This document shows, piece after piece, positions 2,621 through 44,134 of a DNA stretch of 57,725 bases (within the stretch, counting starts at the first letter, position 1; each line of letters opens with the position of its first letter). Origin of the DNA: a virus (Duplodnaviria > Caudoviricetes); IMG/VR virus record IMGVR_UViG_3300034064_000874, positions 1 through 57,725 of that record; one strand, given 5' to 3'. Made by a program: the position numbers and the translations under genes. A model generated the notes under the pieces. It saw only the letters and a list, made by a program, of their open reading frames with translations. It had not been told where the DNA came from and searched no databases.

Positions 2621-3061
2621 ATGGCCATTTTCAAAGGCTTTTTTCGCCGCGATGACGGCGCCCAGATACCACTATTCGAGGAACCTATGAACCAGATTGA
2701 TATGCACCTGACGCCACGCAGCATGTTGACCCACAACCAGATGATCAAGCTAGTGATCTGGCTGAAGGAAAACATCGAAGCAGTCCACGGGCTGCCCTAT
2801 AGAAAGATCGCTGAAATAGCCTCGGCCGGCGTCGGCTTCCCAGTCACCATCAGCAATTTGTACGGCGCAGAAAAGGCTGGCGAGATGGAGTTACCGATTG
2901 CCAGCCGGGTAAATCCTCCGTCCACAAAGACGCCCACCCGCGATGAGCGAATTGCGGATCTGGACGCTCGGGTAAAAGTGCTTGAAGAGCTGCTACTGAA
3001 CCACGTAGCCGGGCATCCGACAGGAATTCATTCAAGATTCGACGGCATGATCGCCGCCTGA
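2621..3061 (+). CDS. Hypothetical protein
   Basis: ATG directly after the ssb stop; 146 aa. Confidence 0.6.
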   Translation: MAIFKGFFRRDDGAQIPLFEEPMNQIDMHLTPRSMLTHNQMIKLVIWLKENIEAVHGLPYRKIAEIASAGVGFPVTISNLYGAEKAGEMELPIASRVNPPSTKTPTRDERIADLDARVKVLEELLLNHVAGHPTGIHSRFDGMIAA

Positions 3062-3072
3062 TATTAAAGGCA

Positions 3073-3456
3073 ATGAGCTTTGGTATGAGCGAGAAAAGTG
3101 ATGGCCCTGAAGTCACTTCAAAGGCTGAAGATCTTCTGCCGTGCCCATTCTGTGGAACCACAGAATTACTATCGGTTGAAGAAATCAGTCGAACCGACAG
3201 GGCCACATTCAATAAAAACGGAGTTCGTCGCAAACGCGCAGACATATCACATCGGGTTGTCTGCTACGAGTGTGGGGCTACGGGGCGTAGCAGCATATAT
3301 TTCCTAGAGCAAATAGAGCTTAGAGAGATAGATATTACTGACTCATTTGATACGGCAAAGCTCTATTGGAACACTCGAGCGCCAATCAGCAACCGAGTGT
3401 TTTCGCTGATAAATAAAATGATCGCTGACGCATTCAAGATTGTCGATGAGAGGTGA
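3073..3456 (+). CDS. Lar-like restriction alleviation zinc-finger protein
   Basis: LLPCPFCG...VVCYECGATG...WNTR pattern. Confidence 0.7.
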   Translation: MSFGMSEKSDGPEVTSKAEDLLPCPFCGTTELLSVEEISRTDRATFNKNGVRRKRADISHRVVCYECGATGRSSIYFLEQIELREIDITDSFDTAKLYWNTRAPISNRVFSLINKMIADAFKIVDER

Positions 3457-7630: not shown

Positions 7631-7895
7631 GGAAGTCGCTGAGTTTCTGCGCGTGTCACCAGCGACTGTGCGTGACTTGGCGAAGCGCGGAGAAATCCCC
7701 AGCGTTCGCCTTGGGGCGCTGTTTCGCTTTTCACGACCGGCCCTAATGCGGTATTTTGACGAGGCCGGGCAAGGCCAGGAGACAAGCACATGTCAGACCA
7801 TGGCATCTATAAAAGGCCGGACTCCCGCTACTGGTGGGCGGCCTACGCCGACGCCAGCGGCAAAGCGACTCGCCGCTCTACTGGGGTCCGAATAG
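7608..7895 (+). CDS. xis: Excisionase (MerR-type HTH)
   Basis: LLTPKEVAEFLRVSPATVRDLAKRGEIPSVRLG; immediately upstream of and overlapping int. Confidence 0.8.
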   Translation: MEPLLTPKEVAEFLRVSPATVRDLAKRGEIPSVRLGALFRFSRPALMRYFDEAGQGQETSTCQTMASIKGRTPATGGRPTPTPAAKRLAALLGSE

Positions 7896-8899
7896 ACCTA
7901 GACCCTCGGGGGACCGAGGCACGACGGGTGCGGCACGAATTCCTGATGGAAGTCGCGCCGCTTGAAGATAAACCCGCAGACCAATGGCTCTGGGAAGAGT
8001 TGGCAGAAGCCTATATCCCTGAGCTGAAGAAAGGAATCCGGCCCAGCACGTTCAATCGTTACAAGGCGGGCATGCGCGTCATGGCGGCGCGATTTTCAGG
8101 TACGCCAGCACTGACCACGGGGCCACAGGTAAAAGCCTGGATTCGTGACCAGGTGAATGCCGGGTATGCCGCCTCAACGATCAACATCAAGATCGCCATT
8201 ATGCAGGGCATGTATTCCTGGGCGATTAAAGAGTTGGACTGGGATATTCAGAATCCGTGGGCAAGCCGAAGTTTGTCGACGGACAATGAGCGCAATCGAT
8301 ACCTTTCGCAGGATGAAGTCGATCGGCTCATGGAATCCGCAAAGGAATGCGCCACGGCCTACTATCTGGTCGACTATCTGACGCTGGCATTGAATACCGG
8401 ATTCCGGCCGCAGGAGTTACTGAAAATGACCTGGGATAGGGTCAACCTGGAAGAGGGTACTTTTGTCTTTGAGAAACCCAAGGCAAAGAATGTGGCCGCC
8501 GATCAGAAGAATGGACGCTATTCCGTAATTCCGATCAACGCCAATGCCCGTCGCGCACTGATATCCCGAATGGAAACTCAGAAGCAGAACGCGGCTGCCA
8601 GTCGCTGGGTATTCAGTAATCGGGCAGGACACCGATTAAAGGATGTGGGATTTGCCTTCAGAGAGGCCGTAAAAAGAGCGGGACTGGAGGACGTTCAGCA
8701 GAGGGATCTGCGAAGGACGTTTGCTTCTCGGCTGGTGCAGGCAGAGGTGCCCCTGCAGGCAGTGTCAGAATTGCTCCGACACGCCGACATCAGGATCACC
8801 GATCGCGTGTATGCACACCTGTCGACGGAGCATTTGAAAGCCGCTGCGGCAGTGCTGGACACACCGCCGAAGCTGAAGGTGGTTTCACGTTCTAAGTGA
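7790..8899 (+). CDS. int: Tyrosine integrase
   Basis: LALNTGFRPQEL, RDLRRTFAS and LLRHADIRITDRVY motifs; N-terminal arm-binding-like region. Confidence 0.93.
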   Translation: MSDHGIYKRPDSRYWWAAYADASGKATRRSTGVRIDLDPRGTEARRVRHEFLMEVAPLEDKPADQWLWEELAEAYIPELKKGIRPSTFNRYKAGMRVMAARFSGTPALTTGPQVKAWIRDQVNAGYAASTINIKIAIMQGMYSWAIKELDWDIQNPWASRSLSTDNERNRYLSQDEVDRLMESAKECATAYYLVDYLTLALNTGFRPQELLKMTWDRVNLEEGTFVFEKPKAKNVAADQKNGRYSVIPINANARRALISRMETQKQNAAASRWVFSNRAGHRLKDVGFAFREAVKRAGLEDVQQRDLRRTFASRLVQAEVPLQAVSELLRHADIRITDRVYAHLSTEHLKAAAAVLDTPPKLKVVSRSK

Positions 8900-9167: not shown

Positions 9168-12100
9168 TTATCGGTTTACCTCCTTCACCCGATCATTCAG
9201 CACCTTCATCTGCGTCGCGATCTGACCATCCAGCGCCTTGATGGTCGCCTTGGGGGCATTCTGCGCGATGAGCTTGCGCTTCTTGGATCTCAGCTCAGAC
9301 ACGGCCCGCTCCATCTGATTACCGGCGGGCACCAGCGCGGCCAGCGGGTTTGAGCGCAGGAATCCAGCCACATCCTTGCCGTCCTTCGCCCGGCCTTTGA
9401 TCTCGCTCTCAAGCTCGTTGAGCCGGGTGAGATTGGCGTAGAAGCGATTCGATTCAGCCGACTGGCTTTTGACGTCACCGACGAACCGCCCTACCCCGAG
9501 CGGATACTTGTAGGGAGGGAGTTCCTCGCCGGTCATCCAGGCGGAAGCGGCCTGCTCGATCTTCATAACTTCCCTGCCCACGCCGCCCGTGGCCTGGCTG
9601 AACACGTAATCCAGCTGATCCGGCGTTGGGGAAAGCGCGCCCTGGGTATAGTCCGTGCCGCCCGTGATCCGGTTCAGTCCCCAGGCCAGTTGTTTCGACA
9701 GCCAGGACGCGGTGTCCTTGGTGCGAGTGAACCCTGGCGTGGGAGATGTTGAAGAGCGGTCCTTCTTGGCGATTTCCTTGCCGAATGAATCCCGGTTTTC
9801 TGACAATGCCACCAACGGATCCGCGAAAGTTGGAGCAATTGTCTGCACCGACCAGCCGGCCGATCCGATCGGGTTGAACGCATCGAAGAAGGATCCCAGC
9901 AAGCCGGCAATCTTCTTCCCGGCCCCATCCGGATTGATGGCGATCTCGGTCAGCACCCGCCCGGTATTGGGCAGCACATGAAAGCCCAGCGGCATGGGGA
10001 TGCTGACGTACTTGCCGTTCGGCATGGGGATGATGAAGTTGCGCTCGCGGAGGAATTCCGGTGGCTCGTCATCGTCATAGCCCGCCGCGGCCATGATGGC
10101 AGCCTGCACAACGCCCATGATCAGGCCGCCGGCGACAATCTTCTTCCCGGCCGGGCCTTTCACTGTTTCTGCGAGTCTGGCCGTGCCCTGAACCGCGGCA
10201 TTGAAGAACGCATACAGCGCTCCCGCCTGGCTGGCGATCTGGCCCTTGCGGTTGAAGTTGACGGTGAGCTCCTTGGCCATGACAGCCGCCTGCTCCTTGC
10301 TCATGCCGCTCTCGGTGCCGACCTTATAGGCCGACAGCCGCACGGCATTTTCCAGCGTCTCGTTGTAGTCGGATAGCCAGTCGAACAGGCCTCGGGTGAG
10401 TCGCTTGACCTTGCCGTCCTGGATGGCCTTGAGCTCCTTCTCCAGCGCCTTCATCCGATCATCCGCGGTGGCATACATATCCCGGTAACCGGTCTTGCCG
10501 CCGATGGACTGGAATTCTTCCCAGAGCTGCGACCATGCCGAGCCTTTCCTCGGCTTGCCCTTGCGGTCGGCCCGGAGATCGCCATAGATGCCCGCCATAG
10601 CCGGTGCGATCTTGGCTGCCACTTCCGTCTGCTTGCCGGCAATCGGTGTCGTGGAGAGGTTCAGCATCGCGCCTTGAGTATCGCGCAGCAGGTTGACGAC
10701 GCCGAAGATCGGGTTGTACTGGGTGTTGATGGAGCTGACGTAGCGCGTGATGTAACGGAACGCATTCAGCAGCCCGTGCATCTCTGGCGCATCCAGGTTC
10801 TTCAGCGACTGCGCCATCCGCACCGCCCGCTCGTTCTCGGTGGAGAAGAACAGGAATCGATCCTTGCCCTTGATCCGCACCGCCAACACGTTGTCGCGGT
10901 TTCTCAGTGCCGGATTGATCTTGTACTCGACCAGGCCGGTACGTGGATTGACGGAGGCCACAGTCGGCTCCTGGATGATTCCAGCCAGGTCTGACTCGAG
11001 CATGCCGTTATTGACCAGCTCCTGAGCGACCGAAGCCGGCTTCTTCACGGCATCCGGATTGACCGGATACCAGAACTCCGGATTCGGGTTCTGAATCGCC
11101 AGCCCATAGAGCGCCAGGCCGACCTTGTTTTTCTCGGCGCGTGTAATCGCTCGTTCACGCTGCATCATGACGTTGGCCAGGATATCGACCACGGCCTTGC
11201 CGGATCCAGTCCTGCGCTTGGAGGCGGGGCCCTTGGTGGAGAAGCCCTGCCCTGTGCCCATGCCGCGATTTAAGACATCTTCGCTCTCGCGCTGCAGCGG
11301 GACATAGTCAGCATAGGTCGCCTCCCAGGCGTCGATCGTGTCCTGGGTTTCCAGGCCGGAGTCCACCAGCAAGCGGCGAGTGCCGGCCGTGATGGCATCG
11401 ATCTGCGCAGCCATGGCCTCGAGGTCGGTGCGCTTCCCGGCGGGCAGATTGTTCAGGTAATCCTGAGCATCCTGGGTCAGTATCCCCGAGCCGCCGTCAG
11501 GGTAGGCTTCGTTGATGCGGGCGATCTGCTCATTGGCTTCCTTCGCATGGCGGTTGTGCAGGAATGTTTCCAGTTCGCCGATGGTGATGCCCCGGGTGGA
11601 CATGGCCCGCAGCAGCGGCTTGATCTCGTTCACCTTGAAATCATCCACGTCCTTCGCGGCCCGGCCGTGATAGAGGGTTTCCTTCAGGTAGGGATCCCAG
11701 GCATCAGACACCCGGCTGCCGAGCTTCTCGACGATCCGCTTGGTGTCGATGTGCTTGTCCTGCAGCAGGTAGACGTAGTTGTCCAGCTTGCTGTCGTCAG
11801 GCGTGGTCCAGGTGGCCAGCGCGGGCTGGTTGAGGACGTTGCGGCGGTTACTGAACAGCGGCATACCGTCCAGTGCTTTGTCCTGGAGAGCGGGCGTGAT
11901 ATCGAAGCCGGGTTGTGAGCTGTAGCGGCCTGATTCGGCTGCAGCGACTTGCTCGTCTGCCCAGGCTTGGGCTTGCTCGCGGGTGTCGAAGGTCTCGGCG
12001 CGTCTCGCCTCACCGGCGCCAACGCCGACCCGGAACCGGCCGCCGCTGGTCTCGTTGATCCGCACTACTAGGTCTTCCGGAGTGTCCGATAGGTCTTGCG

Positions 12101-15100
12101 CTGTGCTAATCGAGACCATCGACAGCCTCTGCCCGCCCAGCTTCTTCAGCACTTCATTGGCGGTCTGTGGAACGATCTGATCGTAGAATTTGCGCATGCC
12201 TTCGCCTCCGACTTTGAGGCCTTCGCCAGTAAAGCCGCCGGAATAAACGCCTCTGTCAATGCTTGACCGTATTTTGTCGCCAAGCTCCTTGCCTATGTAG
12301 TCGTCAACCTTGGTTGATGGCATGGTTTCATTGATGAGATAGTTGTTGTCAAACCCTTTGGCTTGCAGCAACACGTTATCCTTCTCTGTGTTTTCCCACG
12401 TTATGCCAGCAACCTGCTTGCTCAGGTCATACAAATCCGCATTCTGCTGCCCATTGGCAAAGGCGATCTTGTCGAAGCCGTTTTCACTTGCAAAGCGGAT
12501 GGCGCGCTTCAGTCCAAGCGACAGCCAGGACTTGGTGTCGGTGACGAAGGGGGCCTGTGGAATCGTGCCGTCAGTGCCGCCCAGGCCAGACTGATACAGC
12601 TCGATCAGTTGCTCATCTGACTGTCCGTAAGCCAAGTTGACTGAATAGCCACCTACCTGCTCGCCTGCCTCATTGCGTATGAAGACGGCGTCAGGGTCGG
12701 ATCGATCCACCGTAAATTGGCCGGATTTCTTGGTTGCGAATCCTCTTTTCTTCCCTTCCTGGCCCCAGTCCGATTGCAGCTCCTGGATAAACATCACCTT
12801 ATTGCCATCGGCATCGGTGCGCTCGTCGAAACGGAGGTGGGCTAGGACGTTCGGCTCGTTCCAGTGGGAGGATCGGTAGTTCTCTGCTTTCTTTTGCTCT
12901 CTTTCTGCCCGCGTGACTGCATTAGCGTCGTCGTCTTCCAGGTCAGAGAACCGACGGCCAAACATATCCTGCGCGATGTCGTTCAAATTACGAGGCTCTC
13001 GCTCTGGCAGCGTGATCAGCAGCTCCTGATAATTGGTGCCTCCAGGGATCGTGTAGCTGGCAAACTTTGGTGCAGCAGCGCCAACCTCTCCGCGCTCAGC
13101 CATCTCGTTTGCCAGTTCAGCAATACGGAAACGAGCTTGCGCTTGATCAGGCATACCATTCCGCTGGAAGCGCTGAGCGTCCTGCTCTGTTTCTCTTGCG
13201 ATCTCAAGCAGGCCATCAGTGGTGCTGGTGTCGCCGCCGTAATAGTCGACGTAGTCCTGCAGCTCTTTGGGTGGGGCCATCTTGCCGCCCTTCATCACCT
13301 CTTCCACGCGCACCCCGTTATCCGCCAGGTAGCTGGCAATATCGGCCTTGGTGAGCTTCTCTTTGGCATTGAGCGTCAGGTAATCCTCGATGCCGGTCCA
13401 AGCGATCTCGTCGTCCTTGATGCCCAGCTTGGCCTTATTACTGAACAGCCAGGCGCGCCACTGCGACCCGGGCATGGAGTTCATCTTGGATGACTCGAAG
13501 CCGCGAGCGAGCTGCGAGTAGAAGGTGGGATTTGGATTGCGCCGGTTGGAATAGAGGATTCCGTCCAGCGCGGGAGGGAGCTCGTTTAGTCCGACAGGAC
13601 CGCTGTCCCCTGCAGATTCAGCCAGTATTCCATCTCGGCCGCTTCCCCGCCTCTCGCCCGGCACTCGGCTGCCCGTCTCCCGTAGAAGGGATGCGAGGAG
13701 CGCCGCTCTTTTAAGCGTAGTGCGGCCCGGAGTCGACGGTCTTTCTCCTCCTGTGGGATTGGAGGTAGATTGTCCAAGTCTAGCCTTGGCCCCGGCCGAT
13801 AGATTTCTGAAGTCGTCATCTGTGAATACCTTCCCCGAGGAGATTTGTTCGAACTGCCTCGTCTTGAAATTGAATTGGATGTCATCTAGCCCTTCAACTC
13901 CAGCATACCCGGCCTCTCGATTTCCTTCAACGGCATTTCGATAGGATTTCTCGATCAATCGGTCCAGATTTCCGGCATCATCGCCCTCGATCCACTCGAT
14001 GTTTTGCAGTTCGTGCGGCTCCAGATGGCGCGTGGTTCCATACTTCAGTGCCGATGACAGCATCTGCTCGGTGCGACGAATCATGGCCTTCTTCGACAGC
14101 CCGTCAGGATCGCCTTTGAACACCAGCCCATTATTGTGAGCATAGGCGCCGATGATGCTATACAGCTCTGAGCCACGGCTCTTGCCAGACTCCAAGTTGG
14201 ATGCATCCACATAGAGCTTGTCGTCCGAGTCGGTTTTCACGAAAGCCGGGGATCCGTCTTCCATGATGATGGTCCAGTTGCGGCCATCGCGAGACGCCTT
14301 CACCTCGATATCCGGGTTAATGTCGTTGGCGATGTCCTGCATTGTCTTCGCATCTGACTTAGGCGACATGAACAACTGGTCAAACTTGGCCAGTTCGGTC
14401 AGCGTTTGCCTGGCACGGAGCTTGGTCGCCGTCGGGATGCGCCGGTTGCTGGCCGGGATGTCCACAGCAGCGCCTTTCTTCGCCCGGCTGGCCATCTCAT
14501 CCGGCCAGAACTTCTCGCTGGTGCCGGTGAATGAAGCCGCGTAGCGGTCGTAGAGGGATGGATTGATCGACTTGACGTACTCACCCCAGGCTTGCGGGGT
14601 TTTGCGCGACCAGTCCTTGCCCATGAGGCGAGCCAGGCGCTTGTTGGCGTTGGGCTCGGCGCGCTCACCGGGCTCAACCTGGGGACGGCCCTGGCCTTCA
14701 AATCGAACCGGGACTTTGTGATCGCCGATCAAAACCGCGGCACGTTGATTGCCGAAGTCAGCGACATAGCCATCGAAGCCGGCATCGATGACGGCGGATT
14801 CCATGTTGTTGTCGCGCTCTTCGGAATTGGCGCCCGTGATGTTCTCCGCAATGCTCAGCGGATCTGCATCAATATCGTAGAGATTCTTGAGCAGGACGGT
14901 GTGGGCATTGCCGCCGACACCCTGCTCAGGGGACACGCCTTGACCGGCGTTGATGTAGAAGTAGATTCGATTGGCGAGGCGCTGGTCAGCCGCGTTCTTG
15001 ACGCGCTCAGCCTCGGCACCGGTCGCCCCAGTGCCGTACTTGGATCCGTCTAGCTCTTTGCGTTCTGCGCTGGAGTAGTGGACGCCGACTGCGCGGACGC

Positions 15101-18100
15101 CGCCTCTTTTTGTTTGGCCATACCCCGGTCGGTCGCCCGCCGCAGAGCTGCTTCCAGCCCGTTCATTGCCGGGATCATTGGGTCGTCGGTTGCTGGCTGG
15201 GATGTCTGGTCCGACGGCTTCATCGAAGAGGCGGTCAGATTCGGCCTGTATGGCGTCAAAATCCCGCTTCCACCGAGGAATGTCTCGCCCGGCCTGGGAT
15301 CCCGCCGAGTCACTTTTGCCATATCGTGTGCCCTCTAAATAGCCTTCCAGCGTGTCAGGCTCGATCCAATCGGATCGGAACGTCGTGCTGGTGGTTTCAT
15401 ATTCAACATCAGATTCAATGCCACTGATAGCCGAATCTATGCCATCGTGAAAAGTCTGCTCGGCAACCTTCCCTTCAGAGAAGTTACCAAATACCAGAGA
15501 GCCGTCGCGGGTGGATACACCCTGCGCATCCGGATAACGCTGATTGATGACCCGGAAAAGATCAGCTTCTTCGGTGACCGAGAGCTTTTTACTCGGTATC
15601 ACCTTCACAAACTGGTTCTGGACGCCAGTCTGCTTGTCGTTCTCGTTGTAAGCGATCATAGCCTTCTGCTTCCACAGAAGACCCACGATTTTGGCAGCCT
15701 CTAGCTGCTGATCATAACTGACTGACTCGCCAAAGTGGATAGTGATGGACGGATTAACCAGTCCCTCAAATCCACCCATCGTGTACTCAAGGCGAAAGTC
15801 CGTGATGCCCAGCTTGTTGAGCACCTTTGGCAGCACGACATCACCGACCTTTCTGGTGACGCGCAGCTTGTCCTTGTAGGGGAGTCCGTCAAATTTAGCC
15901 GCCGCCCCCTGCGCACCCGCCTTTATGTAGTCCGGATTCGGCGCTAGTTCTGCGTTGACTCCGGAGTCTCGTCGGTTGCTGGCTGGGATGTCTGCTTGTC
16001 CAGCCCCGTTATCCTGTCGAACTCTTCCGCCGACACTATCATCTCCGGCGTCCAGCTTTCGTTGTCCGCCTCGAAATCCCGTTGCGGGTCCGATGGTTCC
16101 ACGGAAATCCCCTTTAGAAGCTCGGAGATTTCTTGCTGCGTTCGCGTAATCTGGGGCTTCATCTGGCTCATAATCTTCACCTTTATCTTCTTTGACCTTG
16201 GCGGCCTCGTACAGTCTCTTCTTTTCTGGATACCAGATCAATGCCTGGAAATCCGCCATAGTCAGCCGGTCGTGTACTTCCTGCAGGCGAGTCAGGGCAT
16301 CATTAAAGACGGCTCGGATGAACTTGCGCTGATTGACCCCTTTGGGCGCATCATTTAGGCCTTGCAGCTGGCGAACCAGGTTATTGCCTGCCTTGCGTAT
16401 TTCAGCACCCATATTGGTTCTGGCTTGCCCGCTGCGTGGCTCACCATAAATCTCAATGAACTGCTTAGGGTCGCGCTCACCAATTGGGTTCATGGCGTCG
16501 CGGTTTTCCGGTTTTTGACTGGCTCCGACAATCAGAGCGGCAGTACCGTCCAGGTCGCCTAACAGTAGCTTTCCGCCAATGATCTCTTGTAGGGAGCGAC
16601 GCTCTTGCGCGTCCAGCATACGAATGAGGGAATCCAGTGATTGGCGCTTTGCCTTAATAGCTGCTGGGTCGATGGTTACCAGGTCGCCAGTCCAGCGGTT
16701 CCATGTCCGCATGAACCAGCGATCCATGGTCAACTGCTCGTAGTGCCCGTAGAGGTTGGAGAAGAACCCGTTACCGATTTTTGGCCCCAAGATAATGGAA
16801 CCGTACACCATCTCGTCTTTTCCTTCGCCAGAAATGGTCTTGCCCGTTAACTGCTCGATCTCTCTGACTGGGCGCAGTGTGGTCATGAAGGACTGCAGCC
16901 TGTCATAACCCCACTTGTCCATGTACTCGTTGTAGGTCGCCAAGCCTTCATCGATCTTGGCTTTGGCCGGGCCTTCGCCGATATTCTCCGGCATGCGTCC
17001 GTGGACTCGCAGGTGCGCATACACCTTGTCGGCCAACTCAAAGTTACGGTCAACCTTCATGCCGTTGGAGGTGACAGCCAGCGCCCAGATAAACCCGAAT
17101 CTGGCCTGCGGATCATCGCGCAACTCAAGGTAGATCTCGCCCATGATATCCATGGCGACCGTGAGCTTTCCGTCGTACCAGCCGATGGCGCTGGAGTTCG
17201 TCTTGAGGGCTTCCTGAGCCTCTCGTATGGCAATGCCGACCAAGTAATCGTAGGTGGACTGATCCTTGGCCTTGAGGTCGACACCGGCGGCCTTCGCTAC
17301 CCTATTGATGCGGCGATCTAGCTCAACCCTCAAATCCCTGCCGGTTTTCCACTGGCGCGACTTGGCCAGATCCACTGCGGCATTGATGAAGTTGATTTCT
17401 TCCAGGGTGGCCGGGATGACCCGCTTATTGGTCGGCTCGCTGTCAAACCCCTTGGCGGCCAGGGTGTTTTTCTCAGCGCGGCGGTCTGCCTTTTCACGCT
17501 CCTTTTCGGCCTTTTGCCGCTCACGTTCTTGAGCTTTCTCTGCTTTCTCTTCTTCCGTCAGGCGTTTCTTGCTCTCCAGAATCTCCGGCCCGTCGAACTC
17601 AGGTTCAGTGCCGGTCTGCTGGGCGTTAGCGTACTGAGCGAGAGCCTCTGTGACGGCGTTACGGGCGCGCTGTAGATCCTTCTTGGCAATGGCGGCTTCG
17701 GCGTTGAATCCGGCGCCCTGGAGCTTCTGAATCAGCCCACTCATGAACCCATCCACGGCCCGCAGGAACTTGCCGCCGGAACCCGGGCGCTGCTTGTTCA
17801 TGGCCACGGCAACACGGAACAGGGCGGTGGGCTTGTGGATCACGTCCGACACAAAGTCGGAAACCCACTCTTCCTCATTGCGGCTGGGATCGGTGAGACC
17901 TGGATAGGCGCTGATCGTGTCGCCTTTCTTCGGAAGCTCCTGCTCGTAGTTGCGTTCACCCAGGTGCATGGACACGCCGATCGGGCTGTACACCTCGCGC
18001 AGCGCCGTCACCATGTCGGCATAGATCTTGGGTGCCCGACGACGCAGGCCATGGGTCAGCTCATGAGCGACGACCCGAGAGAAGGTATCTTGAGAATTCT

Positions 18101-21029
18101 TGTTGAGGAGGATTACATCGGGCCGGGATCCGATGATGGCGCCGTCTCGGTCGAGCTCGGTGGTTCCGTCTTCGTGCTCGATGTAGACGACACGGTGGCC
18201 GAATACCTGCGCAATAGACTCAGCAATTCGTCGTTGCACAAATCCGCGACGGGGCAGCGCGGTTGCGGTTTTGATCTTCTGGAGAAGTACGCCTCCACTA
18301 TCTCCAGCTCCTCCGGCGTTAAGGGTGTCAACTGCTGTGTTGTATTCGTCGATGACATCTTGGTCGTTCGCCTTCGTGTTGCTGGCCGCAATATCGGATT
18401 GTACGCCCTGGCTTGCAAGATACTGCTCCGGCGTAATCAGCGGCTGGCCCAGCTGCTTCTGCACGGCGTTCTGGCCGCGCAGCTCACTCTCCTGCTTGGC
18501 GGTCAGTTGAGTCGGCAAAGATTTGTTGCCAGCTGGCCTGGATACACCCTTGATCGTCCGTCTAACCGGAAGCGGCAGCTGATCCCAGTTCTGACTTTTG
18601 ATCTCCGGCATCTCGAGCTCTTCAGCCCAGACGGATTTACCGGCTTCGTCCAGGGTGTCCCAGTAGTCCTTGGTGTTCTGCTCGGGCTGACGCTCTAGTG
18701 CAGGCTCGCTGACAGGATTGTTGGCCGTTGATGCAGTGGTAGTTGCTCCGACATTTCCATCAGCTGATCCACCCTCAAGTCGATCTCGTCCATCAACAGT
18801 GCCAATTCCAGCTCCTCCTTCTGCTCCCTGAGCGAGAGCACTTCCTGCTGCAGTTCCTGGAGCAATTTCTCCAGTGCCTGCCGTGGGATCATTGGCATTG
18901 GGATTCTCCGTGGTGCCGGCGCTTACCTGCCCGCCGGCTGGCATAGGAATAGATCCGGGCGCTTGGCCCGGAAGGTTTAGCAGCCCTTCTTGCCCGGACG
19001 TCCCGGCATTGGCTTCTTGGTTTTGCCCTTCATTGGTGGTCTCCTGAGTGGCGGTGGTAGTTTCTCGATCAGCATTGAGCTGATCCAGGGCTTCAAACGC
19101 ATCCACGTCGGTCGGATGCTGGCTGATGACGGTCCCGGTGTTGGTATCAACAATCTGGAACTCGTTGTCAGAGACTTGCCGGATCTCCGGCGCGATATCG
19201 GTTACCTGCGGCCCTTGGGCGGCATCGACGGCTTGGGATTGCCCTTCTTGGATGGGGGCTTGGGTTGTTCCTGTTGGTTCTGCAGGCGCCGTACTTGCGC
19301 CAGCGGGATCTTGGGCATTGGTGTCTCCTGGAATGCCGGTGGATGAAATGGAGGTGTCTTCGGCTTGGTCTCGCTCAGCCGGCATCGTCGCGGCCGCAGC
19401 AAGACGCCGAGCCATGATGTCGCGGGCCTGCTTGGCGCGCTCAATTCCAGAGAGTCCTGGGTCGGTCTCGGTCTTCAGAATCTCCATGAACATGGGATTC
19501 TTGTTGTAGAGCGACTCGATCTTGTTTTCGGATGACCAGCGTTTGGCCGCCACATCAGCTGCCTTTCCAAGCAGCACCTGGCCGCCGGTTCCGACCAACG
19601 TGGCAACAGCCGTCTGTATCGCTGCAGACGGACGCTCGGCCATGAATTCCTTGGCGGTCTTGTCTGGGTTCAGCTCAACCCACTTATCGAGATCCTGCAG
19701 GAATGTGGCGGCTTGCTCGCCCAGCATTTCTGGAACCAGCTGCTTGGCAAAGGTTTTCCAGAGGGCGTCATTGGCCTTCAAGCTGCCCAGCAACTTGCCC
19801 ATCGGGATAGTCTCAGTGCCGACCTCGATAATGCCCTGGGTTGTCCCGTAGAGTGCAGCTCGCTCCGGGCTTTTGCCGGCATCACGCGCTTCTCCATAGG
19901 ACTGACCACCCGACATGACGCCCATCGGGGCCAGCGCCATCAGCGGATTGCCAGTGACAACAGCCGCCGGGATCGTCATCAGATTCTGGGTGATCGACTG
20001 CATACCGGAGTACACGCCAGATGCCAGATCGCTGTCGGCCTGTGGGGTGAGTCGCTCGGCAATCGTCTTTTGCCCCTGACGCGCCTTACTGTAGGTCTGC
20101 GCCAGTTGCTGGACCGGATCCTGCACACCAAAAGCGTTGAATACGGGTCCGGTCAGATATTTGTTTGTGGCTTCGGCGCCGGCTTGCAAAGTACCAAGGA
20201 CGCCTTCACTGCCCCGATAAACACCGGACAGCGCAGCGGATCCAAGGTTCTTGGCGGCCTGGCCCGGGTTGTTGACCACGCTTTTCGGGTCCATCACCTG
20301 GTTGTAGGCGAAGTCCTCCACCGCATTGCCGGCGTCGCTGATTAGGTTCTTGCCGCGCTGTAGCAGGGACGGCGGTTGTGCGGGAGGCTCGGCGGGCGCT
20401 GAGACAGCTTCCTGCTGGCTCGAAAATGGAACCTCTGCGGCATCTGCTTCGGTGAAGATCTTCATGCCGCCATCAGAAGGCGAGGCATCCGACGTAACAC
20501 CACCATTCCACGCCGCCAGAATCTGCCGAGCATTTCGCCGACGCGCTCCTAAAGCAGGGACTCCAGGACGCTCGAAACCAGACATGTCGCCTGGTTGCCC
20601 CATGAAATTGGTGGTCGCCTGATCAAGGCTGCCAGACCGCTTCAGCGTCTCGAAAGCCGGCCTCTCGCTGGTCAATAACTCCTGCTTGAGGAACTGAAAG
20701 TTGGCATCATCAGACGCTGGGTCGAGATTGTTCGCCTTAACAAACTCCTCAAACTGACGACGACGCGGACCTGTCCACTGGGCCCATCCAAATCCACCAC
20801 GACCACTGACAGGCTTGATCTCCTGCATCTGCTTGAATCCACCGGACTCATGCCACAGGTTGCCCATAACCCCGGCCGCTTGCTCTGGAGTCATCCGCAA
20901 ATCCGGATCATCGATCAGGCGCTGAACACCCGACAGGGCAATATCCATGCTCGAACGGCGCTCGGGCTTGGCATCAGCCAAAGAGGGACCGGCCGATACC
21001 TGATTACCGTCTTCGTCGAATGCCAACAT
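9168..21029 (-). CDS. Giant polyvalent internal virion/ejection protein (3953 aa): tail-lysozyme, zincin, HhH-like, ART-like, GNAT-like and LPD38-like domains
   Basis: AAGVMGNLWHESGG...GWAQWT lysozyme; HELTH; GPKIG...TMDRW...QALIW; HYS...YFY; G.RGSELY; C-terminal IPMPLG...FNPIG...SPTPDQLDY; last gene of the virion operon. Confidence 0.88.
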   Translation of the reverse strand: MLAFDEDGNQVSAGPSLADAKPERRSSMDIALSGVQRLIDDPDLRMTPEQAAGVMGNLWHESGGFKQMQEIKPVSGRGGFGWAQWTGPRRRQFEEFVKANNLDPASDDANFQFLKQELLTSERPAFETLKRSGSLDQATTNFMGQPGDMSGFERPGVPALGARRRNARQILAAWNGGVTSDASPSDGGMKIFTEADAAEVPFSSQQEAVSAPAEPPAQPPSLLQRGKNLISDAGNAVEDFAYNQVMDPKSVVNNPGQAAKNLGSAALSGVYRGSEGVLGTLQAGAEATNKYLTGPVFNAFGVQDPVQQLAQTYSKARQGQKTIAERLTPQADSDLASGVYSGMQSITQNLMTIPAAVVTGNPLMALAPMGVMSGGQSYGEARDAGKSPERAALYGTTQGIIEVGTETIPMGKLLGSLKANDALWKTFAKQLVPEMLGEQAATFLQDLDKWVELNPDKTAKEFMAERPSAAIQTAVATLVGTGGQVLLGKAADVAAKRWSSENKIESLYNKNPMFMEILKTETDPGLSGIERAKQARDIMARRLAAAATMPAERDQAEDTSISSTGIPGDTNAQDPAGASTAPAEPTGTTQAPIQEGQSQAVDAAQGPQVTDIAPEIRQVSDNEFQIVDTNTGTVISQHPTDVDAFEALDQLNADRETTTATQETTNEGQNQEANAGTSGQEGLLNLPGQAPGSIPMPAGGQVSAGTTENPNANDPTAGTGEIAPGTAAGSALAQGAEGGAGIGTVDGRDRLEGGSADGNVGATTTASTANNPVSEPALERQPEQNTKDYWDTLDEAGKSVWAEELEMPEIKSQNWDQLPLPVRRTIKGVSRPAGNKSLPTQLTAKQESELRGQNAVQKQLGQPLITPEQYLASQGVQSDIAASNTKANDQDVIDEYNTAVDTLNAGGAGDSGGVLLQKIKTATALPRRGFVQRRIAESIAQVFGHRVVYIEHEDGTTELDRDGAIIGSRPDVILLNKNSQDTFSRVVAHELTHGLRRRAPKIYADMVTALREVYSPIGVSMHLGERNYEQELPKKGDTISAYPGLTDPSRNEEEWVSDFVSDVIHKPTALFRVAVAMNKQRPGSGGKFLRAVDGFMSGLIQKLQGAGFNAEAAIAKKDLQRARNAVTEALAQYANAQQTGTEPEFDGPEILESKKRLTEEEKAEKAQERERQKAEKEREKADRRAEKNTLAAKGFDSEPTNKRVIPATLEEINFINAAVDLAKSRQWKTGRDLRVELDRRINRVAKAAGVDLKAKDQSTYDYLVGIAIREAQEALKTNSSAIGWYDGKLTVAMDIMGEIYLELRDDPQARFGFIWALAVTSNGMKVDRNFELADKVYAHLRVHGRMPENIGEGPAKAKIDEGLATYNEYMDKWGYDRLQSFMTTLRPVREIEQLTGKTISGEGKDEMVYGSIILGPKIGNGFFSNLYGHYEQLTMDRWFMRTWNRWTGDLVTIDPAAIKAKRQSLDSLIRMLDAQERRSLQEIIGGKLLLGDLDGTAALIVGASQKPENRDAMNPIGERDPKQFIEIYGEPRSGQARTNMGAEIRKAGNNLVRQLQGLNDAPKGVNQRKFIRAVFNDALTRLQEVHDRLTMADFQALIWYPEKKRLYEAAKVKEDKGEDYEPDEAPDYANAARNLRASKGDFRGTIGPATGFRGGQRKLDAGDDSVGGRVRQDNGAGQADIPASNRRDSGVNAELAPNPDYIKAGAQGAAAKFDGLPYKDKLRVTRKVGDVVLPKVLNKLGITDFRLEYTMGGFEGLVNPSITIHFGESVSYDQQLEAAKIVGLLWKQKAMIAYNENDKQTGVQNQFVKVIPSKKLSVTEEADLFRVINQRYPDAQGVSTRDGSLVFGNFSEGKVAEQTFHDGIDSAISGIESDVEYETTSTTFRSDWIEPDTLEGYLEGTRYGKSDSAGSQAGRDIPRWKRDFDAIQAESDRLFDEAVGPDIPASNRRPNDPGNERAGSSSAAGDRPGYGQTKRGGVRAVGVHYSSAERKELDGSKYGTGATGAEAERVKNAADQRLANRIYFYINAGQGVSPEQGVGGNAHTVLLKNLYDIDADPLSIAENITGANSEERDNNMESAVIDAGFDGYVADFGNQRAAVLIGDHKVPVRFEGQGRPQVEPGERAEPNANKRLARLMGKDWSRKTPQAWGEYVKSINPSLYDRYAASFTGTSEKFWPDEMASRAKKGAAVDIPASNRRIPTATKLRARQTLTELAKFDQLFMSPKSDAKTMQDIANDINPDIEVKASRDGRNWTIIMEDGSPAFVKTDSDDKLYVDASNLESGKSRGSELYSIIGAYAHNNGLVFKGDPDGLSKKAMIRRTEQMLSSALKYGTTRHLEPHELQNIEWIEGDDAGNLDRLIEKSYRNAVEGNREAGYAGVEGLDDIQFNFKTRQFEQISSGKVFTDDDFRNLSAGAKARLGQSTSNPTGGERPSTPGRTTLKRAALLASLLRETGSRVPGERRGSGRDGILAESAGDSGPVGLNELPPALDGILYSNRRNPNPTFYSQLARGFESSKMNSMPGSQWRAWLFSNKAKLGIKDDEIAWTGIEDYLTLNAKEKLTKADIASYLADNGVRVEEVMKGGKMAPPKELQDYVDYYGGDTSTTDGLLEIARETEQDAQRFQRNGMPDQAQARFRIAELANEMAERGEVGAAAPKFASYTIPGGTNYQELLITLPEREPRNLNDIAQDMFGRRFSDLEDDDANAVTRAEREQKKAENYRSSHWNEPNVLAHLRFDERTDADGNKVMFIQELQSDWGQEGKKRGFATKKSGQFTVDRSDPDAVFIRNEAGEQVGGYSVNLAYGQSDEQLIELYQSGLGGTDGTIPQAPFVTDTKSWLSLGLKRAIRFASENGFDKIAFANGQQNADLYDLSKQVAGITWENTEKDNVLLQAKGFDNNYLINETMPSTKVDDYIGKELGDKIRSSIDRGVYSGGFTGEGLKVGGEGMRKFYDQIVPQTANEVLKKLGGQRLSMVSISTAQDLSDTPEDLVVRINETSGGRFRVGVGAGEARRAETFDTREQAQAWADEQVAAAESGRYSSQPGFDITPALQDKALDGMPLFSNRRNVLNQPALATWTTPDDSKLDNYVYLLQDKHIDTKRIVEKLGSRVSDAWDPYLKETLYHGRAAKDVDDFKVNEIKPLLRAMSTRGITIGELETFLHNRHAKEANEQIARINEAYPDGGSGILTQDAQDYLNNLPAGKRTDLEAMAAQIDAITAGTRRLLVDSGLETQDTIDAWEATYADYVPLQRESEDVLNRGMGTGQGFSTKGPASKRRTGSGKAVVDILANVMMQRERAITRAEKNKVGLALYGLAIQNPNPEFWYPVNPDAVKKPASVAQELVNNGMLESDLAGIIQEPTVASVNPRTGLVEYKINPALRNRDNVLAVRIKGKDRFLFFSTENERAVRMAQSLKNLDAPEMHGLLNAFRYITRYVSSINTQYNPIFGVVNLLRDTQGAMLNLSTTPIAGKQTEVAAKIAPAMAGIYGDLRADRKGKPRKGSAWSQLWEEFQSIGGKTGYRDMYATADDRMKALEKELKAIQDGKVKRLTRGLFDWLSDYNETLENAVRLSAYKVGTESGMSKEQAAVMAKELTVNFNRKGQIASQAGALYAFFNAAVQGTARLAETVKGPAGKKIVAGGLIMGVVQAAIMAAAGYDDDEPPEFLRERNFIIPMPNGKYVSIPMPLGFHVLPNTGRVLTEIAINPDGAGKKIAGLLGSFFDAFNPIGSAGWSVQTIAPTFADPLVALSENRDSFGKEIAKKDRSSTSPTPGFTRTKDTASWLSKQLAWGLNRITGGTDYTQGALSPTPDQLDYVFSQATGGVGREVMKIEQAASAWMTGEELPPYKYPLGVGRFVGDVKSQSAESNRFYANLTRLNELESEIKGRAKDGKDVAGFLRSNPLAALVPAGNQMERAVSELRSKKRKLIAQNAPKATIKALDGQIATQMKVLNDRVKEVNR
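13586..13819 (-). CDS. Nested +1-frame ORF (77 aa, MTTSEIYRPGPRLDLDNLPPIPQEEKDRRLRAALRLK...)
   Basis: GGAAGGT about 8 nt before ATG; protein-like sequence over a G/R-rich linker of the host gene. Confidence 0.5.
   Translation of the reverse strand: MTTSEIYRPGPRLDLDNLPPIPQEEKDRRLRAALRLKERRSSHPFYGRRAAECRARGGEAAEMEYWLNLQGTAVLSD
15050..15322 (-). CDS. Nested +1-frame ORF (90 aa, MAKVTRRDPRPGETFLGG...)
   Basis: AGAGGG RBS about 8 nt before ATG. Confidence 0.55.
   Translation of the reverse strand: MAKVTRRDPRPGETFLGGSGILTPYRPNLTASSMKPSDQTSQPATDDPMIPAMNGLEAALRRATDRGMAKQKEAASAQSASTTPAQNAKS
15944..16171 (-). CDS. Nested +1-frame acidic ORF (75 aa, MSQMKPQITRTQQEISELLKG...)
   Basis: AAGGTG 6 nt before ATG; acidic, helical-looking sequence. 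Confidence 0.5.
   Translation of the reverse strand: MSQMKPQITRTQQEISELLKGISVEPSDPQRDFEADNESWTPEMIVSAEEFDRITGLDKQTSQPATDETPESTQN
18113..18358 (-). CDS. Nested +1-frame ORF (81 aa, MSSTNTTQQLTPLTPEELEIVEAYFSRR...)
   Basis: Protein-like N-terminal half; weak RBS (AAGG 12 nt upstream). Confidence 0.4.
   Translation of the reverse strand: MSSTNTTQQLTPLTPEELEIVEAYFSRRSKPQPRCPVADLCNDELLSLLRRYSATVSSTSSTKTEPPSSTETAPSSDPGPM
18695..18898 (-). CDS. Nested +1-frame acidic coiled-coil ORF (67 aa, MPMIPRQALEKLLQELQQE...)
   Basis: GGAG-N7-ATG; strong heptad pattern. Confidence 0.62.
   Translation of the reverse strand: MPMIPRQALEKLLQELQQEVLSLREQKEELELALLMDEIDLRVDQLMEMSEQLPLHQRPTILSASLH
18977..19033 (-). 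CDS. Nested +1-frame basic peptide MKGKTKKPMPGRPGKKGC
   Basis: CAGGAG-N7-ATG; TAA stop. Confidence 0.55.
   Translation of the reverse strand: MKGKTKKPMPGRPGKKGC
19202..19318 (-). CDS. Nested +1-frame basic peptide MPKIPLAQVRRLQNQQEQPKPPSKKGNPKPSMPPKGRR
   Basis: CAGGAG-N6-ATG. Confidence 0.55.
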   Translation of the reverse strand: MPKIPLAQVRRLQNQQEQPKPPSKKGNPKPSMPPKGRR

Positions 21030-22448
21030 TTATTTCACCTGCGAAAAAGCGACTTTGATGGGATTACCTTTCTCATCGAACGTATTGACGACCCAATAGG
21101 TGTGGCCGTCTTTGGCGGCGAACAGCTCCTGCTCGCCAGTGCTGGCCGCAAGCTCTGCCTTTTCCTGGGGTATGCCACCGACCGTCACCAGGCCTTGAAC
21201 AGTGCGGATATACTTCTGCCGCTGAGCAAGAAGCTCTTCCTTGCCTGCGCGGTACTTTTCTCCCAGAGGATCATTCGCCGGCGGCGTTTTGGGCTCATCC
21301 GGAATCGGGAAATACTGATTGGCGACGGACTCGGCGCGCTTGATATCGAACCCACCGCCGGATCCGCTGTTTTTGCTGACTGATCCAAGCCCCTTGCTGT
21401 CAGCCTCGGCCCAGTTCTTGTCCTGCTTGGATAGCTCCGTGTCGCTCTGGGCCATTTTGAGATTGAGCTCAGCCTGCTTGATCTGCCTTTCCAGTTCGCT
21501 CTTGCTGCCGTAATCGCCAATCTCGAGACGCTTCTGCAGAGCCTCCAACTGATTCTTGGCGGTCAAGGCGTTCTGATTGTTGATGTAGGCCTCATCACGG
21601 GCCGAAATAGGCTTCGGCGCCCCGTAGGCCAGCGACCTGGAGAATTCCTGCGCCTGCTGACGGATGGTGGGATTCCTGGACAGCATGCGGTTGAACTTGG
21701 CCAGGCCAGTCAGCTTCCGGGCGGCTTCTGATTCTGTCAGCGCCAGTAGCGGGTCGTCGGGGAGAGAGCTGGCAAACTGGGTCGCGGGGGCGTCGTACTC
21801 GGCAAACTCGCCTTTGGCATTGGCGCCCTTGACTCTGAGCATGGGGACGACCTTGCCGTTGACGCGATGGAACCCGACCGGCTCCTTCACAGCGACCCGG
21901 ATCTCTGCCCCGGTTTTCGGGTCACGACCCACATCGCCCAGGTTTCGATTGAAGACAGGCGTCAGCGCCGGCAACAATCGCTTGGCGACTTCTGGATCAT
22001 CAATGGGGATCTGGCCTGAGCGAACGCCTTTGGCCAGATTGTTGATGGTGTCGGCGTCATCTTCCATGTTGAGCATGGGCGCCATGCCGAAGTCCACCAG
22101 CTGCCGATAGTCGTCTTCGTTGATGGAGTCCTTCTTGAGGATGGCTTCGATGACGGGGAACTGAGCCTGCTTGTTGGCCTGCTCCATCGCCAGTCTTTCC
22201 TTGGCAATTTCTAGGCCGCCCTTTTCTTCGTTCATCCGCAACTGCCGTTCCTGGCGGTTGTTGTCCAGCTCCATGTTCTTGGCTTGCGCCTCGTACCAGC
22301 GGTCCTGGGTTTCCTGCCCTTTCCTCAGGCGCTCGGATTCGGCTCGCTGCAGGTCGCGGTTGACGGAGGAGTTGTAGAGGTCGTTTGCGTTCTGCAGGCC
22401 CTGGGTCAAGCCCTGGGTGAAGCCGCGCATTGCAAAGCCGTTGGCCAT
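21030..22448 (-). CDS. Putative internal virion/ejection protein
   Basis: MANGFAMRGFTQGLTQG N-terminus; Q/E-rich coiled coils; position; GGAG RBS. Confidence 0.75.
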   Translation of the reverse strand: MANGFAMRGFTQGLTQGLQNANDLYNSSVNRDLQRAESERLRKGQETQDRWYEAQAKNMELDNNRQERQLRMNEEKGGLEIAKERLAMEQANKQAQFPVIEAILKKDSINEDDYRQLVDFGMAPMLNMEDDADTINNLAKGVRSGQIPIDDPEVAKRLLPALTPVFNRNLGDVGRDPKTGAEIRVAVKEPVGFHRVNGKVVPMLRVKGANAKGEFAEYDAPATQFASSLPDDPLLALTESEAARKLTGLAKFNRMLSRNPTIRQQAQEFSRSLAYGAPKPISARDEAYINNQNALTAKNQLEALQKRLEIGDYGSKSELERQIKQAELNLKMAQSDTELSKQDKNWAEADSKGLGSVSKNSGSGGGFDIKRAESVANQYFPIPDEPKTPPANDPLGEKYRAGKEELLAQRQKYIRTVQGLVTVGGIPQEKAELAASTGEQELFAAKDGHTYWVVNTFDEKGNPIKVAFSQVK

Positions 22449-43294: not shown

Positions 43295-44134
43295 TTACGG
43301 GTTGCTGGCCATCATCGATGGTAGCTGCGCCATGTACTGATTGGCGGCCTTGCGCTTGGTCGGCCAGGATTTACGCGCACCACCCACGACGGGCAGCACG
43401 TCTCTCAGGCCAAAATCACGGCGATTGCCCAGCTTCCCGGGCTGGTTATAGAAGGCAATGGCTGAGCGAGCCGCCCACACTGGATCCTGGGAAACCAGAT
43501 CGGGGTTATTGGCAATCGTGCCGCCGGTCCTGTAATAGTCGTCGACGTTCTCGTAGGCCTGGCGTCCAGTCAGATGCACCATGCCGCGGCCTCGGTACTT
43601 GTAGCCGTCTCCAGGCTGCGTGTTGCCCAGGTCAGGACGATCGCCATACAGGGCGTTGTACTGGCCCTCCTCATCCATGCCGGCAATTGACTTCGCCTGC
43701 TTGATGACGGATGGCTTCTTGCCGCCGAATAGCTTGGCAATCCGTTTGGGGTTGGTATATCGACCATGTTCGGCCATGCCGGAGAGCGGGAAACCGCCGG
43801 TTTCGCCATGTGCCACACCCATCATCGCGGCAATCGCCCGGTCGGAATAACCCGCCTGGCGCAGTTCCTTGATGTAGGTCTGCTTGTAGTCGTCGGAGGT
43901 GTAGTTGCGAGCCTGAGCCATCGGCGCTGCCTGAGTTGGCTGCGCGGCAGCCTGAGCGGGCTGAGTCGGACGTCCGAAATACTCGCGCATGTCCTTGGTG
44001 GCCAGGCGCATCGGCATCATGTCGCCGGTTTCCGTGTTCCGGAGCAGGTAATCACGGTTATTCGCCTCGACAATCTGCCGGGCTTCTTCCGGCGTGGGCA
44101 ATCCTTGTCGACGGGTATTCTGTAAGCCAGCCAT
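43295..44134 (-). CDS. Glycoside hydrolase family 19 protein with N-terminal extension
   Basis: HGETGGF; LGNTQPGDGYKYRGRGMVHLTGR. Confidence 0.85.
   Translation of the reverse strand: MAGLQNTRRQGLPTPEEARQIVEANNRDYLLRNTETGDMMPMRLATKDMREYFGRPTQPAQAAAQPTQAAPMAQARNYTSDDYKQTYIKELRQAGYSDRAIAAMMGVAHGETGGFPLSGMAEHGRYTNPKRIAKLFGGKKPSVIKQAKSIAGMDEEGQYNALYGDRPDLGNTQPGDGYKYRGRGMVHLTGRQAYENVDDYYRTGGTIANNPDLVSQDPVWAARSAIAFYNQPGKLGNRRDFGLRDVLPVVGGARKSWPTKRKAANQYMAQLPSMMASNP

Follow-up and report, generated by a model that had tools for sequence, protein, structure and literature searches.

Few phage proteins are as large or as poorly understood as the polyvalent proteins, whose presumed task is to deliver enzymes of anti-defence and takeover together with the DNA. 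Since 2017, when it was already proposed that zincin domains process them into functional units (Iyer, Burroughs, Anand, de Souza and Aravind, 2017; PMC5512222), it has been asked if they work as a single chain or are released in pieces. This report deals with a polyvalent protein of 3953 amino acids (aa) encoded in a stretch of 57,725 nucleotides from a virus of the Caudoviricetes (Duplodnaviria; IMG/VR record IMGVR_UViG_3300034064_000874, positions 1 to 57,725), which is called the window below and whose coordinates are used throughout. A short motif, in its full form xxxSNRR, has seven occurrences in this chain and variants across the protein family, and it follows one protease clade; as a candidate cleavage motif it makes the question of one chain or released pieces directly testable.

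The giant gene and its modules

The gene lies on the minus strand, and its reading as one open reading frame (ORF) for a polyvalent protein of this length, made from the letters alone in a preliminary description, is borne out by an uninterrupted frame at 9168-21029 and by Pfam matches to lysozyme, LPD37 and LPD38. These three (PF18013, PF18853 and PF18857) are the only Pfam matches of the protein, and searches of Pfam, NCBIfam and PDB sequences with separate segments gave nothing beyond them. Upstream on the same strand are the genes of the large terminase, the portal, the major head protein, an internal virion protein and tail proteins. The product is an LPD38-type polyvalent protein belonging to the structural module of a probably temperate 933W/Bcep22-like podovirus, an assignment made because virion genes lie upstream, the C-terminus is homologous to that of other such proteins and homologues have been seen in virions. 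Several distinct domains (the Pfam lysozyme, LPD37 and LPD38, a zincin signature and at least three more confidently folded modules) are joined in one chain with LPD38 at its C-terminus, and the gene is located in the virion module. The homologues gp47 of phage phi24B and gp69 of phage JC1 were both found in purified virions by mass spectrometry, and the authors of the former propose an ejection protein (10.64898/2026.04.10.717836; PMC9144972). By analogy with these virion proteins, the giant protein would be carried inside the particle, from which it is probably ejected into the host.

The chain consists of about eight modules, in which an N-terminal lysozyme and a conserved C-terminal module frame a variable cargo made of the zincin and five other modules. 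Its features, from the N-terminus to the C-terminus, are the following.

9168-21029, minus strand: giant ORF, polyvalent protein, 3953 aa, open throughout, 0 Cys
20517-20894, minus strand: phage tail lysozyme domain, aa 46-171 (Pfam PF18013, E 1.7e-21)
18372-18395, minus strand: degenerate motif DIAASNTK, aa 879-886, directly before the zincin module (DNA repeat family D2)
17586-18371, minus strand: gluzincin-like metallopeptidase module, aa 887-1148 (HELTH at 18051-18065; E1054 at 17868-17870)
17562-17585, minus strand: degenerate motif EILESKKR, aa 1149-1156, directly after the zincin module (sequence match)
15993-17561, minus strand: module S2, aa 1157-1679, with a charged helical start (atlas lead DUF7178)
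15969-15992, minus strand: motif DIPASNRR no. 1, aa 1680-1687 (sequence match)
15207-15968, minus strand: module S3, aa 1688-1941, predicted tandem ferredoxin-like domain (AlphaFold2, pLDDT about 90)
15183-15206, minus strand: motif DIPASNRR no. 2, aa 1942-1949 (sequence match)
14463-15182, minus strand: module S4, aa 1950-2189, possibly a distant ART-PolyVal relative (AlphaFold2, pLDDT >90)
14439-14462, minus strand: motif DIPASNRR no. 3, aa 2190-2197 (sequence match)
13563-14438, minus strand: module S5, aa 2198-2489, with LPD37 at aa 2209-2451 (PF18853, E 1.7e-53)
13539-13562, minus strand: motif GILYSNRR, aa 2490-2497, preceded by ALDG (sequence match)
11862-13538, minus strand: module S6, aa 2498-3056, QSDW-containing domain (QSDW shared with the family)
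11841-11861, minus strand: motif PLFSNRR, aa 3057-3063, preceded by ALDGM (sequence match; homologous junction visible in relatives)
9171-11840, minus strand: conserved C-terminal module, aa 3064-3953, with a hydrophobic helix and LPD38 at aa 3653-3844 (PF18857, phrog_14770)

All seven motifs and HELTH are where the preliminary description had placed them (in the two degenerate copies, SNTK is at 18372-18383 and SKKR at 17562-17573), and several of its domain labels hold as well: the lysozyme and the LPD38-like C-terminus correspond to PF18013 and PF18857 (the latter at E 5.6e-38 and 131 bits, with a cut-off of 27; phrog_14770 at E 9e-194), and the QSDW of its QSDW-containing domain recurs 81 times in 76 family proteins. 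Other labels have to be replaced or qualified. The segment called GNAT-like is Pfam LPD37 (E 1.7e-53), and for the segment called HhH-glycosylase-like, S2, no match was found in Pfam, NCBIfam or PDB sequences; a language-model atlas points instead to a DUF7178-like domain at aa 1157-1683 (score 0.94-0.96), which is a lead only. The ART-like label of S4 agrees with an atlas lead (aa 1950-2193, ART-PolyVal-like, score 0.92, again only a lead) and finds no counterpart in Pfam, NCBIfam or PDB sequences, ART-PolyVal (PF18760) giving no Pfam match even at E of 5 or below. The domain left as unknown, S3, indeed matches no family, and its model is that of a tandem ferredoxin-like domain; its best VIA scores (CusA porter subdomains, Z 9.3; a phage SAM lyase, Z 9.2) are both generic fold matches. 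In S4 the core is strongly conserved, with RIYFY..GxGxxPExGVG..H..NxYD, which has invariant columns in alignment A2, and GxDG, and the module often travels with S3 as one unit. S6 has no Pfam or PDB match. The N-terminal module (aa 1-878) holds, besides the lysozyme, hydrophobic segments and a low-complexity region, with low-hydrophobicity stretches at aa 560-731. The PHROGs match of the giant protein is confined to the last 880 aa and leads to families of giant proteins to which no function is assigned.

A motif conserved at the level of the protein

The xxxSNRR element is a real, non-random short linear motif selected at the amino-acid level. SNRR is seen five times in the giant protein against 0.048 expected from its own composition, DIPASNRR three times against 8e-7, and none of the other six-frame ORFs of at least 100 aa in the window contains SNRR. 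The Ser codons of the five copies (AGC, AGC, AGC, TCC and AGT) come from both codon families and the Arg codons are of three kinds (CGA, CGG and CGC), from which conservation at the protein level follows. The longest DNA common to motif copies is an exact direct repeat of 26 nucleotides at 15183-15208 and 15969-15994, that is, at DIPASNRR no. 2 and no. 1; the third DIPASNRR copy is 81% identical to this repeat and differs from it at synonymous positions. An origin of the copies as remnants of a large duplication was ruled out, the shared DNA being 26 nucleotides at most and the flanks unrelated.

The same picture is obtained from the relatives, in which 53 unique sites have a fixed core and variable flanks; D at -4 (31 of 53) and R at +3 (29 of 53) are enriched, although neither was demanded by the search pattern. 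The two degenerate copies around the zincin align with better ones elsewhere, DIAASNTK with DLAASNR and LQPAASNR before the zincin module and EILESKKR with GPLKFSNR and GKVRFSNR after it, and in relatives canonical motifs flank the zincin on both sides.

Motifs at the borders of modules

The motif sits at each module boundary. BLAST alignments with the 14 closest relatives break at aa 1143, 1949, 2197-2200, 2482-2493 and 3051-3063, all of them at motifs; at aa 2197-2200, beside DIPASNRR no. 3, the high-scoring segment pairs (HSPs) from P0003, P0005 and P0009 stop. A census of breakpoints was made over 265 relatives (the family set of 267 proteins minus the query and its 93%-identical neighbour P0004), whose 479 HSPs gave 811 endpoints, those due to protein termini being excluded. 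Of these endpoints, 398 fall no more than 15 aa from one of the five SNRR motifs, in zones that make up 4.8% of the length, and 420 no more than 15 aa from one of all seven motifs (6.7% of the length). The endpoints gather at aa 1680-1699 (44), 2480-2499 (58) and 3040-3079 (166); another cluster, at aa 2100-2119, has no motif and looks like a sub-domain border within S4. Pfam models likewise end a few residues short of the motifs, both here, where LPD37 spans 2209-2451 and the motifs stand at 2190 and 2490, and in relatives such as P0009, where ART-PolyVal spans 2708-2846 and the motifs stand at about 2683 and 2853. Among relatives that start or end at a motif, four C-terminal tails with the core pattern were counted against about nine expected by chance, and the N-terminal matches looked unrelated, so that this comparison carries no weight either way.

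The coincidence of homology breakpoints with motifs, the 26 identical nucleotides common to two copies and the RecT encoded in the genome of a relative would all suit a joint for module swapping by recombination at the DNA level, for which the protein would have no need. As the explanation of the motif this is improbable, though it may be true in addition: the five SNRR copies use both Ser codon families and three Arg codons, the DNA identity stops at 26 nucleotides, and the amino acids of the motif are conserved even among relatives that share only 50-60% identity in their C-terminal modules. Conserved linkers may well bring about shuffling at the joints as a side effect.

Motifs in predicted flexible linkers

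The four SNRR motifs that were modelled occupy linkers predicted to be disordered between the modules. The region concerned, aa 1600-2560, has 1686 relatives at E of 0.001 or below among 1.84 billion representative proteins, and a search for related loci with it returned 0 relatives from the single sequence and 19 loci from alignment A2. The AlphaFold2 model of these 961 aa (the fifth SNRR and the pre-zincin site are outside the modelled regions) was made from an alignment of 29 rows (the query itself, 12 short proteins taken whole, and parts of 16 among the 19 loci) and has a mean predicted local distance difference test (pLDDT) of 70.5. Only four stretches exceed 20 residues at a pLDDT under 50, namely aa 1624-1684, 1942-1964, 2187-2207 and 2420-2504, each with exactly one motif, and the domains between them are modelled with confidence. 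DIPASNRR no. 1 stands at the end of the first stretch and no. 2 at the start of the second, whereas no. 3 and GILYSNRR are inside the third and fourth. Since about 23% of the residues have pLDDT below 50, four of four would be expected by chance with a probability of about 0.003. In the zincin model the chain is disordered from aa 1146, just ahead of EILESKKR. The placing of the motifs between apparent domains in the preliminary description is thus in line with both the BLAST breakpoints and the low-pLDDT linkers; motifs inside folded domains, which it had named as a finding that would speak against it, are not seen for the four modelled copies, all of which fall in low-confidence linkers.

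A gluzincin-like module in the same chain

The zincin is plausibly an active protease, to judge by its signature and its predicted topology. HELTH (aa 989-993), which had been read as a zincin motif, belongs to a complete and conserved gluzincin signature, HExxH followed by ExxSD. Of the 266 other proteins of the family set, 50 contain a homologue of aa 887-1148; H989, E990, H993 and E1054 are invariant in 51 of 51 aligned zincin modules and D1058 is found in 49 of them. The pair HExxH and ExxSD is presumably comparable with the thermolysin-type NExxSD, and we take E1054, by motif, to be the third zinc ligand. In the AlphaFold2 model (pLDDT 77) a three-strand sheet is followed by the HExxH helix and then by a helix with E1054 (model helix 162-177).

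Searches did not place the module in a known family. Pfam Peptidase_M78 was matched below threshold (E 0.05, 13.8 bits, with a cut-off of 22), and the segment gave no NCBIfam match, no PDB sequence match and no tblastn match among phage records. Foldseek ranked PprI/IrrE best (E 0.23) and listed further zincins with weak scores, and the best VIA score was Z 6.4, to unrelated helical proteins. With the 961-aa model the best Foldseek E value was 0.04, and VIA matched the ferredoxin-like S3 domain only; such weak scores of either model do not prove that the folds are new. A complex prediction of the zincin (alignment A4) with zinc and a 42-aa linker peptide (aa 1926-1967), run without controls, scored 0.01 and 0.10 against a mark of 0.32, a result with no bearing on whether the two bind.

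A family-wide tail and a local dialect

The motif has two layers, a family-wide tail phi-x-[F/Y/A]-S and lineage-specific residues after the Ser, which here are N-R-R. Across the family, basic residues come after the tail, as in DIRFSR. In 70 of 120 relatives the C-terminal module is immediately preceded by phi-x-[FYAQ]-[SQ]-(N)-x-[RK] (for instance DIRYSRQ, DIRFSRRR and PLFSRRR); the other 50 are outside the patterns, and many of them resemble decayed forms such as DITRSRRR and DINASVGQ. The lead-ins are specific to the module and all end in phi-x-phi-S: QIKSAxGNxGxFDxxxxDIR[FY]S is the tail of ART-PolyVal, QPGFxITPxxxxKxxxGxPLFS that of the QSDW domain and ILYS that of LPD37. The distant MetMV and Dartukuta proteins have no exact SNRR and carry the related forms DVSFQR, KFQRQ and DIRFSRS. 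A family-wide census by regular expression gave 69 matches against 1-6 in 20 shuffles, an illustration only, because the expression was derived from the same data.

The second layer was compared between the clade of this zincin, defined as the 14 proteins whose zincin matches this one by BLAST at E below 1e-40, and the 253 other proteins. All 14 have phi-x-[FYA]-S-N-[RK], with 1-6 sites each and 57 in total, against 5 of the 253, among them a fragment that comes from a close relative and is truncated at its 5' end, and P0149, which has a different zincin. The contrast persists when the tail is held constant:

ART-type tail followed by N[RK]: 12 of 13 inside the clade, 1 of 62 outside
QSDW-type tail followed by N[RK]: 7 of 7 inside the clade, 2 of 46 outside
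Strict ART tail followed by N[RK]: 5 of 6 inside the clade, 0 of 44 outside

In a quick maximum-likelihood tree of the C-terminal module, restricted to the first 40 relatives out of 120, two proteins with another zincin and no SN sites, P0008 and P0010, stand on branches of 0.013 at most beside two with this zincin, P0009 (6 SN sites) and P0011 (4 SN sites); P0012-14 and P0031/37/40 give a second contrast. At the level of sequence comparison, the S-N-R/K dialect therefore shows a strong association with one gluzincin clade, even where the C-terminal modules are nearly identical.

These data also bear on the idea that the motif is never cut and is instead a docking or handling signal, present once per module, that serves, for example, capsid packing, the passage of the unfolded chain through the tail or the binding of a host factor. 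Such a role would fit a motif that behaves as a short linear motif in disordered linkers and whose core is kept in zincin-less proteins, and the lack of Cys in 212 of the 267 family proteins fits unfolded transit. No partner is known for such a signal, a shift of dialect with the zincin clade is unexpected for it while the C-terminal module stays nearly identical, and the presence of the motif on both sides of the zincin is what self-release would predict. We regard a handling signal as unlikely.

The motif as a candidate processing site

The arrangement suggests that each motif is a candidate cleavage site read by the gluzincin of the same chain (aa 887-1148, HELTH and ExxSD), which has a weaker copy of the motif on either side. 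The preliminary description had likewise read the motif as a processing site, perhaps for the internal zincin, and this reading is supported in part. If the chain were cut, be it in the capsid or once ejected, pieces of about 886, 270, 531, 262, 248, 300, 566 and 890 aa would result. Were the cut to fall after F/Y/A, the new C-termini might resemble the SSB tail, which is a speculative idea. That the motif is a proteolytic processing site, whichever protease acts on it, is moderately probable; that the protein's own zincin does the cutting is a serious candidate whose chances we put a little short of even. Cutting at the motif, the zincin as the cutter, the scissile bond and the timing are all inferred.

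Several observations weigh against cutting by the resident zincin. HExxH is lacking in 23 of 120 homologues, several of which keep DIRYSRQ before the C-terminal module, and no zincin homologue was found in 26.5 kb of the 69.9-kb contig around one HExxH-less gene (best E 0.49); since zincin-less relatives keep a single tail motif, the motif core is independent of a zincin in the same protein. In P0149, three SN-type sites occur together with a zincin that does not match this clade. The link between dialect and zincin could come from inheritance of the whole variable region as a block, with no functional coupling. Structure searches gave no significant match to the zincin model, and Pfam M78 reaches only the E value given above. 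The zincin might act on host targets or the cell wall instead: the metallopeptidase domain of phi24B gp47 is assigned by its authors to peptidoglycan degradation (10.64898/2026.04.10.717836). The phi24B and JC1 accounts, in their available text, give the giant protein in virions and do not mention fragments (10.64898/2026.04.10.717836; PMC9144972).

Part of this evidence would be equally at home with cleavage by a different protease, be it a host enzyme, another phage protein or an activity of the C-terminal module, the zincin then being an effector or a cell-wall enzyme, as the assignment for phi24B would have it. The tail motif retained before the C-terminal module in zincin-less relatives is in its favour, and so is a loop inside the C-terminal module with the motif-like x-[AFS]-S-[KR]-R, present in relatives with and without HExxH. 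We nevertheless consider a different protease quite unlikely. A scan of 20 neighbouring ORFs in the window recognised no prohead protease, and what follows the Ser varies with the zincin clade, not with the C-terminal module, which is hard to explain by a host enzyme or by the C-terminal module.

The loop itself, GQGFSTKGPASKRRTGSG, is glycine-rich and lies at aa 3267-3273 (11211-11231, minus strand). Its core resembles the junction motif and stands at the same position in 57 of 57 printed rows (120 aligned). It could be an eighth site, or a hint of another factor that reads the motif.

Cleavage by the resident zincin, if extended to the family, would make polyvalent proteins true polyproteins with a readable code of protease and site, in which every module ends in phi-x-[FYA]-S and each zincin clade sets the residues after the Ser (N-R-R here; R-R-R or R-Q elsewhere). 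This generalisation is tentative, and we would not yet bet on it. If it were true, the sequence would suffice to predict the mature set of injected effectors, and any exchange of modules between phages would require linkers retuned to the resident protease. The motif also gives objective module borders, of use for the annotation of unknown domains in thousands of polyvalent proteins.

Neighbouring genes and relatives

Just beyond the 3' end of the giant gene lies an integrase gene (7790-8899, plus strand; phrog_1, E 1.6e-57), so the phage is probably temperate. A gene for 472 aa (21030-22448, minus strand) abuts the start of the giant gene; its product has no PHROG match and 0 Cys, and phage JC1 has a virion protein of 510 aa at the equivalent position. 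Between the portal and head genes, a gene for 279 aa (43295-44134, minus strand) matches carbohydrate-binding or endolysin-like PHROGs, neither protease nor scaffold. The other large structural proteins of the window have 1-4 Cys each. The family proteins without Cys include 200 of the 234 with at least 2000 aa, and this near-absence fits transit unfolded or through the periplasm.

A search with the C-terminal 890 aa found giant proteins in 341 phage records, every one at less than 60% identity, among them Stx-converting, Vibrio, Ralstonia and Burkholderia phages. This module has 1770 homologues at E of 1e-10 or below, and the 119 full-length relatives differ greatly in domain content; megablast of the giant gene against phage records gave no match. 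Among named phages, the C-terminal module is closest (44% identity) in MK170447.1, recorded as a Methanosarcina virus, and MW749009.1, recorded as a Bacillus phage, unlike the rest of the family, which infects proteobacteria. These host records may be wrong, because the 'Bacillus' record annotates an outer-membrane lytic protein.

Comparison with known systems

The protein resembles the polyvalent proteins of Iyer et al. (2017) in its many unrelated domains, its place in the virion gene module and its LPD37, LPD38, lysozyme and zincin domains; unlike in that work, whose main text names no cleavage site or linker motif (PMC5512222), a junction motif with a clade-tied dialect is described here. 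The zincin also differs from the MPTase/zincin domains of that work in being below the threshold of every Pfam model. The motif and its link to the zincin clade appear new, as neither was found in the main text of PMC5512222 or in a wider literature search. The giant proteins gp47 of phi24B (2811 aa) and gp69 of JC1 (4515 aa, 'DarB-like') have a homologous C-terminal LPD38 module and are encoded at the end of the structural module; the accounts of them, as far as their available text goes, report no linker motif or processing. The cargo in the middle is different here from that of the giant proteins of the Bcep22 type (methylase/helicase) and of phi24B (LPD5/LPD1).

MARTX toxins are huge polypeptides in which a built-in cysteine protease cuts the linkers and frees effectors in the target cell. 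They are secreted bacterial toxins, and their protease is activated by inositol hexakisphosphate and cuts after Leu. The protein described here belongs instead to a phage virion, bears a metalloprotease signature and has another, longer motif; the analogy is functional only.

In phage T4, the prohead protease gp21 cuts internal head proteins at L/I-x-E, and gp245 of SPN3US reportedly belongs to a comparable maturation of head proteins. Common to these systems and, presumably, the present one is an ejected, head-packed protein with a short recurring motif, here a candidate site. The capsid protein of the related phage phi24B is reported to be uncleaved (10.64898/2026.04.10.717836). Prohead proteases differ in being separate enzymes that act in trans on another motif, and the ORF scan described above recognised none here.

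In polymorphic toxins, a short motif, such as VENN in CdiA, borders the constant part and a swappable module, with one junction per protein. As in these toxins, the motif of the giant protein stands at the border of swappable modules and coincides with recombination breakpoints; unlike them, with their single C-terminal toxin, the giant protein has seven junctions in series and carries a putative protease in the same chain.

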